This document shows positions 1 through 3,000 of a stretch of DNA of 29,795 bases, in pieces. Within the stretch, counting starts at the first letter, position 1. The number at the start of each line of letters is the position of its first letter. The position numbers are program-made. Source of the stretch: a virus (Duplodnaviria; Heunggongvirae; Uroviricota; Caudoviricetes); IMG/VR virus record IMGVR_UViG_2703718802_000001; one strand, written 5' to 3'.

Positions 1-3000
1 CCTTTCCTCCAGTTCTCCCCCGTCATCAGGTGTTCTCTGATTGTGTTGTCGCCGCTCGCGATCTATCTCCAGTACAGTTTTAACGTCATATAAAACTTCC
101 CTCCCCCGACGTTCAACAGGAGGAACGCCCCATTTATCAAATGCCTGAACAGAGATACCGATGGAGGAGGCCATATCACTTTTATTCAATAAAAAGGCCA
201 TCTCCTCTCCATAAGTCATCGATAAAAAGCGATACAACAACCATGTGTTTTTGCAAAACCATTTGATATCATTGACATTTTTCGCATTGACGACATCAAA
301 ACACATCGTAAGGTTGTTGTATTTATTTTATTTTCACCTTACTTATCAATTAGATATACCAAACAATTAAACAACAACCCCCCCCTCAAAAAATCTCATA
401 AATAGTGAAAACGCGCGAGGTCGCCGCCCCGTAACGGCCCGGATCGCCGGAAAGGACCCGCAAAATGATAATGGTTATCAGTTGCAACAAAATCCAGTTT
501 CTTCCACCATCGCACCGGACCAGCGACCATGAGGGGACAACGCCGCGCTCCGTTAACGCGGTAAACCCCGGTGTGTATCGTTTTTGATTATCCCCGCACA
601 CTCTCGCAGAGGAGTCTCCCTGTCGGGCTGCGGTCTCTGTTAATGCAGGAATACGGCGACGATACGGCGCATGGCTATGTCAGGCTGAAATGCCTTTATC
701 CGTTAAAAAGGATATCAATTAAGTTATCCCGTGTAGGGTATAAGCCATTGTCGAGACCACTCATTGAATGGCCTCTGCAATAACCGATGTCTTTCCATCA
801 GTCCGCCACCACAAAGAATCTTTTTTGCCATAAGGCTGGAGGTTCATCTTTCAGTGGCTGCCAGTGTTATTTCCCCACTTACTGGCTTGGGTTGTTTCGC
901 GGTACTGCCGTTAATTGATGAGTCCGGGGATTACGGTTTGCCCGTGCTGTTCAAGGCGTTCAATTCTAGCCAGCAGCTGTGGCTTCTTAATTTTGCCCCA
1001 GCGATTTAGCAGGCGACCTGACATGCTGGCAACATCCTTCTCTTTCATGTACTCCAGCATTACGGCATTTCTCTCTTCTTCAAATTGACGATGACCAACC
1101 TGAAGCATGGCGTACATCCAGTTAAATGCGTTGATGTAAGCAATTTTGATACGCATTGCTTCTTTTTTGGTGTAGGACATAACCAAAAGCATCAACCCAT
1201 CCTTGCGGAGACGGTAGAATTTTTGCGGCTTACCATTCTGTAACTCATTGTTTTTATAGCAAAGCTCAAAGTTGAGCTTTGTATCAAACTCAGGAGGGCA
1301 AGCTTCTATGGTTCGTTCAATGTCACGAACTACGTTCTTCGGCAGCTTTCCAAATGCTTTTGCCACCATAAAAGAATCTGTAACCGGATCGTTGTTTGCC
1401 ACAAAAATCAGATCTCGAAAATCGATGCCGTTAACGATAGTTGGATAATTCATCAGTGCACACCTTTTAGTGATGAACCTTGTCACACAGGATTCCGGCC
1501 CACAGAAAGGCACCGATCACCAAACCGGCATCCTCAAGGGTCATCCTGAAAGGTTCTGTGTTCATAAGTCGCGCGTGTGAAGCGCGTTTACTGCGGACAT
1601 AAAAAAGCCCCGCATCGCGGGGCTCATTAAATGGACTTTGTGATTTGCAAAAAAATTATTTCAGGCATTGCGTCCTGATGTATTCCTGCAGGTAGTTAAC
1701 CTGCGCGGTTATCTTGTCGATTCCACTTCTGAGACGGTAATAATTGAGTTCAGCATCTGCTGTAAGTCCTGGGCTTTCTCCATCGCCCATGCTGCTGGCT
1801 CCGGTCGTTGACTTTGCACAGGTGGCGGCGACTTGCAGGCGCTTACGACCAGCAGAAACATCAGCACGGAGACTTTCGATAGTCGCATTAGCATCAGCAA
1901 GCTCCTTTGTGTATCTGGCGTCAAGTTCTGCTACATCACGTTGCCGCTTCTGCATATCATCGATGATGGATGTGGCTTTATCGCGCTGCTCTTTGTAGGC
2001 GATGGCGTTATCACGGTAATGATTCAGCCCCAGACTAAGCGCACCACAGACCACCAGCAGAATAACGGTAAACGCGGAAATAATTCGGTTTATGCTCACC
2101 CCACCAGCCCTGCCGAACTCAACGCCATCCAGGCTATGGAAAGAAAAAGAGCAACCATCATTAGCGAAAATGAAACGCCGACAATCACACAAATGGTCTT
2201 TGTCAGCGTTATGATTTTATCCGATATCATTAGCCACCACTCCATCAATCCGCCTTTGTTATTTTCCCTTTGCCTGTATCAGCCAGGACAAAATCAATCA
2301 GCAGATTCGCTTCGTTTATCAATGTGCGGATTTTTGACACATGCGCAGCTTTAACCAATTTCCATTCGTTTAACCCTGTACCAAACAGACTGGCAATGTT
2401 TTTATCCCGTTTCATGTCAGCGCATGCCTGGTTGAGTTCTTCCATCACGCTCATTTGACGAGGATTAACGACAACCCCCTTCGTCCAGTATTCATAGAGA
2501 ACATCGTCGCACTCTTCCTGATACTGGATTACCTTGTCGCGGATTTCAGGTTTAACTTTGTTTGAGTTGATGGTCTGAAGCCAGGCAGCCAGCTTACGCA
2601 GAGCAAGACAAGTCATTGTTTGCTCACCACCAGCAGAAGGTATTATGATTTCCGTAACGCCTTTGGCAAATCGTTGTTTTAACTTAGTAAATTGTGGAGC
2701 CCAGGCCAGCCCCATCCCCTCAACAATGGGTTTCATAGGAACATACGGTTCGCCATTATGGTTAACCACATAAAGAGAATCGCCGTGAAACGGCACGGTC
2801 ATCATATTCATCGGTTATTTCCTTTTAGTGATGAACCCTGCGCACAGGAATAACCAGCCCAAAGAGGGTTAACCAGACCACTGCCGGTTATCCACCAGGG
2901 CTCATCCTGAAAGGTTCTTTGGTTTATTTACGCTTGTGCGAAGCGCAGAAATGACAAAGGCACCATTACGGTGCCTCTGCGTGAAATAATGTTCCTGACG

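Follow-up and report, generated by a model that had tools for sequence, protein, structure and literature searches.

A conserved pseudoknotted leader RNA, present twice in a lambdoid prophage, as a probable translational control element of late-operon accessory genes

Two copies of an RNA element of ~130 nucleotides (nt) lie in the late region of IMG/VR virus record IMGVR_UViG_2703718802_000001 (Caudoviricetes), a lambdoid prophage whose entire 29,795-nt sequence, here called the window, was analysed. One copy, leader A, precedes a Rha-like gene, and the other, leader B, precedes an Ant-like gene. Comparative analysis shows that these leaders share a conserved, pseudoknotted RNA fold on the sense strand, predicted to consist of a small hairpin (P1) followed by a long bulged hairpin (P2). 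The closing helix of P2 contains the Shine-Dalgarno (SD) sequence of the downstream gene, and the leader is probably a cis-acting control element for the translation of whatever accessory gene follows it.

Genes between positions 900 and 3950 are all on the minus strand, and therefore each repeat is read as its reverse complement, which makes it the 5' leader of a gene. Including the spacer to the start codon, a leader occupies ~150 nt, and both copies stop at the SD, 8-9 nt ahead of the ATG. The features of the two copies are as follows.

1462-1586, minus strand: leader A as a whole, preceding the Rha-like gene.
1570-1586, minus strand: hairpin P1 of leader A, with arms CGCGC and GCGCG around the loop UUCACAC.
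1575-1581, minus strand: P1 loop of leader A, the 5' half of the pseudoknot (from the fold).
1462-1554, minus strand: long hairpin P2 of leader A (from the fold, a model match of 156.3 bits and pair counts).
1549-1553 with 1463-1467, minus strand: anti-SD CCUUU of leader A paired with the SD AAAGG (from the fold).
1483-1488, minus strand: bulge GUGUGA of leader A, paired with UCACAC of the P1 loop (from the fold and pair counts).
911-1453, minus strand: cargo A, the Rha-like gene (180 amino acids, ATG at 1451-1453), with an N-terminal Phage_pRha and a C-terminal ORF11CD3 domain.
2821-2947, minus strand: leader B as a whole, preceding the Ant-like gene.
2929-2947, minus strand: hairpin P1 of leader B, UGCGCUU / CGCAC / AAGCGUA, with its loop at 2936-2940.
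2821-2915, minus strand: long hairpin P2 of leader B (from the fold, with the z-score given below, and a model match of 105.7 bits).
2910-2914 with 2821-2825, minus strand: anti-SD CCUUU of leader B paired with the SD AAAGG (from the fold).
2841-2845, minus strand: bulge GUGCG of leader B, paired with the P1 loop CGCAC (from the fold).
2245-2811, minus strand: cargo B, the Ant-like gene (188 amino acids, ATG at 2809-2811), with an N-terminal P22_AR_N domain and ORF11CD3.

A previous sequence-only reading of the window had recognized a duplicated structured leader from two shared blocks, a small hairpin and complementary arms in the divergent middles. The blocks were placed correctly: plus-strand CCTTTTAGTGATGAACC occurs at 1463-1479 and 2821-2837, and TCATCCTGAAAGGTTCT at 1541-1557 and 2902-2918, each of them twice only. 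Chance would be expected to yield 0.09 and 0.15 occurrences of these 17-mers per window, respectively, with up to three mismatches. The small GCGC..GCGC hairpin is likewise present in both copies (1570-1586 and 2929-2947), and the quoted arms do pair, forming the next helices above the base of P2. Four points had been missed: the pseudoknot between the P1 loop and a bulge of P2, a non-conserved 32-codon open reading frame in copy A, the identity of the element as the leader of the classic rha genes, and the mutual pairing of the two blocks, one as anti-SD and the other as SD. Folded as RNA, copies A and B adopt one common architecture, in which the 5' block CCUUUCAGGAUGA and the 3' block UCAUCACUAAAAGG form the base of P2, a hairpin of ~93 nt. 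The copies are alike from P1 through the first two codons of the gene, with 76% identity over the aligned stretch, and differ in the apical middle and in the terminators upstream. Copy B has a folding-energy z-score of -3.35. That of copy A is only -0.97, which speaks against the proposal; single-sequence energy on its own is not convincing, and the case therefore rests on comparative data.

A covariance model (R1) that holds the nested structure only was searched against 73 sources, comprising the window and 72 representative loci. This search of other loci, which the sequence-only reading had proposed, returned 83 matches, 81 of them distinct, among which are weak second copies in several prophages. 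No further leader copy was found in the window by exhaustive model search. Pairs were counted in the covariance-model alignment (A4), because a MAFFT alignment of diverse types (A3) misplaced the B/Xenorhabdus bulge by two columns. Among the 81 distinct homologs, standard base pairs occupy 94.8% of pair cells, compared with 87.0 +/- 0.3% in shuffled controls (0 of 500) and 31-46% with slid partners. Changes on both sides are seen in 29 of 37 pairs (shuffled 13.5 +/- 1.8, slid 4-12), and the covariation score is 0.250 (shuffled 0.112, slid about 0.02-0.05). By pair counting in helix 1, all four pairs of P1 covary in the family. RNAalifold, applied to the covariance-model alignment, independently gave the same nested helices, with compensatory changes in 22 of 29 pairs. 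Types differ from one another in the sequence and length of the apical half. Comparison supports the conserved RNA fold proposed from the two copies, on the mRNA-sense strand.

The pseudoknot joins the P1 loop, which is 7 nt long in the arrangement GCGC-N7-GCGC, to a bulge of 5-6 nt on the 3' strand of P2, and both elements co-vary. It was added to alignment A4 afterwards as separate brackets; since it was left out of the covariance model, its covariation is not a fitting artefact. Two-sided changes are seen in five of the six pairs of this helix, in which 95.2% of cells form pairs. In a first permutation test, which used loops and bulges extracted by regular expression, mean maximal complementarity was 4.79, versus 4.00 +/- 0.16 for shuffled partners (0 of 2000 shuffles). 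Homologs exhibit at least nine distinct complementary loop/bulge states. The window contains UCACAC/GUGUGA (copy A) and CGCAC/GUGCG (copy B), and further states include UCUCAC/GUGAGA, UCGCAC/GUGCGA, CCGCA/UGCGG, CGCUC/GAGCG, UGCCC/GGGCA, GCCCA/UGGGC, UUCACA/UGUGAA, CCGAAA/UUUCGG and CGCCC/GGGCG.

Strand-specific features agree with a sense RNA. The model scores copies A and B at 156 and 106 bits in the sense direction, versus 19 and 14 bits antisense, and GU and UG pairs (65) outnumber AC and CA mismatches (37). Pairing between a loop and a bulge is, moreover, not a property of duplex DNA.

Several individual loci depart from the usual arrangement. The leader in L041 (2509-2659, plus strand) is a recombinant within the element, with P1 of type B, P2 of type I and a mismatch at the centre of the pseudoknot. 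L133 (4818-4960, plus strand) has a broken pseudoknot loop ahead of a cargo open reading frame (ORF) that has decayed to 11 codons, a case that we count in favour of cis-acting control. L132 (7297-7439, minus strand) is a leader copy with a decayed cargo, also of 11 codons. Where a locus carries two or three copies (the window, L181, L228, L145, L290 and others), the loop/bulge codes differ within 28 of 28 loci; after near-identical phages are removed, ~13 independent combinations remain and the chance probability is roughly 0.05, so the difference is not significant and is suggestive only.

The 3' base of P2 coincides with the SD of the downstream gene in all sequence types. The base helix, CCUUU:AAAGG or, in type II, ACCU:AGGU, is likewise present in all types, and across the family a distance of 8-14 nt separates the GG of the SD from the start codon. 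Predicted SD pairing probabilities are at least 0.99 in both window copies and average 0.92 over the leaders.

A looser pattern, applied to one genome per species, detected the element in prophage regions across Enterobacterales. Host genera include Xenorhabdus, Arsenophonus, Edwardsiella, Serratia, Pantoea, Erwinia, Tatumella and Sodalis, and the element is also found in Yersinia pestis, Salmonella, Citrobacter, Enterobacter and others. Phage records with BLAST matches to the element are those of Stx phages, POCJ13, ST64B, PS34 and Klebsiella phages. The window copies represent types I and B. The divergent type II was first encountered as matches of 71% identity in HK544 and Stx2c phages; the leader of the P22 rha gene was assigned to this type by a follow-up search, and that of phi80 rha is, by inspection, of a further type. 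The window copies are too diverged from P22F, a small RNA of phage P22 described below, to be linked to it by blastn. Type-I leaders are present in 806 of 5,426 complete E. coli genomes (about 15%), with a median of two and a maximum of eight places per genome. Among the matches listed, the sole RefSeq annotation overlapping a type-I leader is the Rha-family regulator gene, with no RNA or regulatory feature.

Most leaders follow a terminator. A terminator-like hairpin with a T-run is located 9-50 nt upstream in 73 of the 83 matches, and with one exception the distance is 9-26 nt. Wherever a limited tblastn search could identify the gene upstream, it was Rz or the endolysin gene. Downstream genes form at least 18 clusters, whose products carry KilA-N, Phage_pRha, P22_AR_N, AntA, ANT/KilAC, P63C and ORF11CD3 domains in shuffled combinations. 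HNH endonucleases are also found, as is one protein with a weak, sub-threshold glycosyltransferase-like match only. The leader is thus associated with a late-operon slot and with accessory genes of many kinds rather than with a single protein family.

In 933W-like phages, an extra divergent leader (CGCCC/GGGCG) directly follows tRNA genes and a terminator, and is itself followed by an ORF of only 16 codons (L008, 2113-2252, plus strand; also L018, L026, L028, L066 and L224). A 392-nt Xanthomonas pisi sequence (L144) carries a B-type leader identical to copy B across the 94-nt core and its flanks (60 nt on the upstream and 20 nt on the downstream side). This tiny contig belongs to a non-enterobacterial assembly and is probably contamination.

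One member of the family has already been seen as RNA. In small-RNA sequencing of Salmonella infected with P22, Naaz et al. (2026, PMC13397905) found that ten P22 loci account for 99.8% of phage-specific reads. Among these is P22F, an 89-nt RNA whose 3' end falls 6 nt short of the start codon of rha; its read counts are 926 and 2054 in two infected-sample columns, and it was confirmed by reverse transcription PCR and is listed with "no known function" (PMC13397905). That report treats P22F solely as a small RNA, with no family, pseudoknot, SD pairing or other cargo (PMC13397905). We find that it belongs to the leader of P22 rha, which is a member of type II in the leader family. P22F is a sense-strand RNA that corresponds to 1521-1609 of the P22 locus, which is P2 minus its 5' anti-SD strand, together with a 15-nt single-stranded SD tail. 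Its 5' end is within the 5' strand of the P2 lower stem. RNase III was considered as the source of the P22F ends and rejected, since by our own reading these ends lack the geometry of a 2-nt 3' overhang, and the 3' end is at odds with a simple RNase III cut. The idea that the duplicated element is a cis-regulatory leader or a small RNA is supported by the conserved sense fold, by an SD that forms the 3' base of P2, and by this discrete P22 RNA (PMC13397905).

The annotated coding sequences of two classic rha genes begin within the leader. P22 ORF201 (BK000583, 1546-2151) starts at a GTG in P2, and phi80 rha (NC_021190, 1348-1902) starts at a GTG in the pseudoknot bulge. We judge both GTG codons to be inside the leader because of the rha start placement in PMC13397905 and the family alignment, and the true rha start is likely an ATG close to the SD, which in P22 is 69 nt further downstream. 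A note in the phi80 record reads "DNA synthesis inhibition in IHF- hosts". Henthorn and Friedman reportedly found in 1995 that harm from rha is confined to hosts deficient in IHF.

The fold and its position suggest how the leader could work. As the 5' part of the cassette within the phage late transcript, it would act in cis on translation initiation of the slot gene. Its default state would be SD occlusion, of which both direction and strength are predictions, and the leader would most probably keep translation low although the late operon is heavily transcribed. Only Q-antiterminated polymerase would transcribe the cassette, owing to the terminator ahead of the leader. Release might occur when an endonuclease removes the 5' anti-SD strand, leaving a hairpin-capped mRNA with a free SD, a route that we suggest because of the ends of the P22F RNA, which are its sole basis.

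Several results weigh against this proposal. SD pairing probability is uninformative on occlusion, as crude controls are also high (0.77). The energy needed to open the ribosome-binding site (RBS; -18 to +10) has a median of 9.4 kcal/mol in 73 leaders and 9.6 in crude control ORFs, and is 8.5 in ten leaders versus 11.1 at 38 annotated phage gene starts (p = 0.99 for "greater"), in models that leave out the pseudoknot and with many control genes that are translationally coupled, and hence opened by upstream ribosomes. Leaders, unlike coupled controls, follow about 150-200 nt of untranslated RNA. As modelled, nearest-neighbour thermodynamics gives no support to an exceptionally strong RBS block. 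In addition, the paired blocks are conserved across distant hosts beyond what pairing would need, which hints at a sequence-specific partner.

We consider it unlikely that the leader chiefly yields a processed, stable small RNA of the P22F kind, which would act in trans on targets of the host or phage or on further leader copies, its place next to the SD then being secondary. Such a function would fit the place of P22F among the ten loci that supply 99.8% of P22-specific small-RNA reads, with its confirmation by reverse transcription PCR (PMC13397905), as well as the excess conservation of the blocks and the loop/bulge codes that differ in 28 of 28 multi-copy loci, as if cross-talk mattered. 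However, the conserved blocks are buried in helices, and the 3' end of the fold coincides with the RBS throughout the types. Structured leaders also give rise to stable fragments that accumulate without serving any function, and the difference between codes is not significant when ~13 independent combinations are counted (chance roughly 0.05).

It is quite unlikely that the leader serves only RNA processing or stability, as an entry site for RNase III or RNase E or as a protective 5' hairpin that divides the late transcript into segments, with no specific role in translation. P2 does consist of long, quasi-continuous helices, the 5' end of P22F maps to the 5' strand of the lower stem, and a terminator hairpin next to structured RNA is typical of processing sites. 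The ends of P22F nevertheless lack RNase III overhang geometry, and a simple site needs neither a pseudoknot nor invariant pairing of SD and anti-SD.

A compact pseudoknotted fold with the SD in its closing helix is also reminiscent of a switch, and the phi80 record note on IHF- hosts, like the harm of rha reported for IHF-deficient hosts, might point to a protein factor. Still, a riboswitch-like or protein-responsive switch (IHF/HU, Hfq, ProQ or CsrA), or a pistol-like self-cleaving ribozyme, is improbable. The apical half is variable, and the conserved nucleotides are mostly paired and not in junctions, unlike those of ligand pockets. No Rfam riboswitch or ribozyme matched at E <= 10, no conserved alternative pairing was seen, and the phi80 type has no GGA motifs. 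Inspection of the conserved blocks by eye revealed no IHF consensus site.

Lambdoid phages are mosaics, the same leader stands before at least 18 cargo clusters, and L041 recombined within it, all of which would suit a DNA-level element such as a junction for homologous cassette exchange or a protein-binding inverted repeat. We regard this as very improbable, because loop-to-bulge covariation and an excess of GU pairs are traits of a single-stranded sense RNA; recombination may exploit the leader, yet this leaves its structure unexplained.

A coding function was also considered. Copy A has an intact 32-codon ORF (1467-1565, minus strand; MNTEPFRMTLEDAGLVIGAFLWAGILCDKVHH; judged non-coding) that runs from ATG to TAA, encodes a hydrophobic peptide and stops within the SD block, and the GenBank records of POCJ13 and vB_EcoS_P22 annotate a "hypothetical protein" at the leader. 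In copy B, the frame is already closed by a stop at codon 6. The two-block pattern gave 127 instances on IMG/VR, 38 of them distinct, and these 38 variants exhibit every block spacing from 87 to 94 nt, with the frame stopped or shifted in most. In the Xenorhabdus type, the ATG of the ORF is ATA. The ORF is not conserved, a small ORF or leader peptide was rejected family-wide, and a small protein gene, whether for a 32-amino-acid hydrophobic peptide or as an upstream ORF coupled to the cargo, is scarcely credible, as coding cannot account for the covariation of the pseudoknot.

A bolder extension of cis-acting translational control is speculative, and we doubt it. Pairing between P1 loop and bulge, for which at least ten codes were seen, might be an exchangeable "address code" of a programmable RNA, which prevents mis-pairing among co-transcribed or co-resident copies or enables trans communication between prophages, while cleavage of the anti-SD strand switches on toxic genes of the KilA-N, Rha or Ant type at a set point late in infection, possibly under a host factor such as IHF. 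If so, leader copies or P22F-like RNAs would talk between prophages, as c4 does in P1/P7 heteroimmunity.

The RNA families of Rfam 15 do not include this element. With Rfam 15 at the gathering threshold, a search of the whole window gave nothing at either leader. At E <= 10 over 1400-3050 there were only sub-threshold matches, mostly located on the Rz terminator (asX2, with 32 bits versus 70; rimP; F6), and a weak sub-threshold match to CRISPR-DR33 at 2115-2144. The leaders of P22, phi80 and HK544 had no Rfam 15 match. Membership in Rfam families, including IsrK, c4, thermometers, riboswitches and ribozymes, was rejected for want of a match. A relationship to STnc100, which occurs in the same late region, was rejected as well, the two being separate loci in L008. 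The literature searched held no description of the leader other than that of P22F.

Judged by analogy, the nearest functional counterparts are leaders that sequester the SD, the nearest topological ones are IncI-alpha/IncB repZ and, formally, pistol, and the nearest biological ones are IsrK-anrP, sar and c4. In the repZ/repA leader of IncI-alpha and IncB plasmids (ColIb-P9, pMU720), the loop of an upstream hairpin forms a pseudoknot with a sequence near the sequestered RBS. The present leader resembles it in that the loop of a small upstream hairpin pairs with a short stretch on the 3' strand of the SD-holding hairpin, and both would exert cis-acting translational control over a potentially harmful gene. 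However, the repZ pseudoknot activates, requires translation of the repY leader peptide and is blocked by an antisense RNA, whereas in our leader no conserved ORF or antisense promoter was found, the target bulge is ~17 nt from the SD, and there is no homology. In pistol ribozymes, which are often phage-associated, a 5' hairpin loop forms a pseudoknot of ~6 base pairs with an internal loop on the 3' strand of the next hairpin. This likeness is one of topology only: our element is three times larger, with neither an Rfam Pistol match nor the conserved pistol nucleotides, and P22F spans the bulge uncut.

The RNA-based control of antirepressors offers biological parallels. P22 sar/ant and P1/P7 c4/ant regulate antirepressor-family genes through RNA that pairs with the RBS or close to it. 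Processing of the same transcript releases c4, and a comparison of P1 with P7 shows covariation of its loops with their targets. Both are immunity-region systems with trans or antisense pairing, while the present element belongs to the late operon, pairs intramolecularly and has no homology to them. IsrK, in the isrK-orf45-anrP operon of Gifsy-1, is a prophage RNA directly upstream of an antirepressor-type operon, where the long transcript is translationally inactive because of its structure and a short RNA comes from the same 5' region (PMC13397905, PMC12197685). IsrK differs in acting in trans on its own long mRNA and in having its own promoter; our element, inside the late operon, has no Rfam IsrK match at E <= 10 and no promoter was found for it. 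Because the leader peptide, the antisense RNA and homology of the compared systems were not found, we file the leader as an undescribed RNA family that would work like a known kind.

Phages that carry the element include some that have been studied most closely (P22, phi80, Stx-converting phages and ST64B), yet it is missing from Rfam and from RefSeq annotation. It is a concrete candidate for an RNA mechanism in a long-standing puzzle, which is how rha expression is kept harmless, and it would account for spurious small ORFs and for N-terminally extended rha annotations. Terminator and leader together may form a portable adaptor that phages place before diverse accessory genes of the late operon. 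The very clean covariation of the pseudoknot recommends the leader for structural studies and as a new family in Rfam.

In the window, the order of genes on the minus strand is holin, endolysin R, leader B, the Ant-like gene, an ORF of 50 amino acids, Rz/Rz1, a terminator, leader A and the Rha-like gene. The neighbouring features are as follows.

3085-3618, minus strand: endolysin R (Phage_lysozyme).
2958-2976, minus strand: terminator-like hairpin AGGCACC/GGUGCCU, then UUUGUCAUUU, upstream of leader B (read from the sequence).
2096-2248, minus strand: hydrophobic transmembrane ORF of 50 amino acids between the Ant-like gene and Rz, with no Pfam match.
1656-2099, minus strand: Rz/Rz1 (Phage_lysis).
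1605-1625, minus strand: intrinsic terminator 3' of Rz/Rz1 and ~19 nt upstream of leader A, with a stem of 9 base pairs (seven of them GC), then TTTTTTAT.
10455-11183, minus strand: immunity-region gene with Rha and ANT domains and no leader (domain search and model search).
11252-12175, minus strand: immunity-region gene with P22_AR_N and P22_AR_C domains and no leader (domain search and model search).

A terminator-like hairpin does precede each leader, at 1605-1625 and 2958-2976, as had been proposed. The latter was scored at -18.5 kcal/mol by a detector of hairpins with T-runs and is unlisted in a consensus terminator scan. The suggestion that both cassettes interrupt the lysis genes holds for cassette B, which is located between R and Rz, but not for cassette A, which comes after Rz and its terminator. 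"Moron cassette" is only a loosely apt term for them, as no promoter was found and the terminator is upstream of the leader. A consensus scan of the minus strand detected no sigma-70-like promoter upstream of either leader, the terminator being there instead. No promoter-like site was detected on the plus strand near either leader, in a consensus scan that is weak evidence on antisense RNA.

Other observations concern the remainder of the window. Part of the Ant-like gene has 74% identity over 300 nt to the P22_AR_N and P22_AR_C gene at 11252-12175. A stretch made up of the Rha-like gene's 3' end and the sequence just downstream (768-967, minus strand) has 95.5% identity over 202 nt to P22G, a P22 small RNA with no known function (Naaz et al. 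2026, PMC13397905). A cluster of direct repeats of ~17-20 nt (CCCTCGTTTTGAGGGAT-like, at least four copies) at 17452-17575 resembles the iterons of replication origins. Rfam matches at gathering level are the small RNA STnc100 (6875-7086, minus strand), the lambda cIII thermoregulator (23456-23514, plus strand) and three tRNA genes (8495-8743, minus strand).

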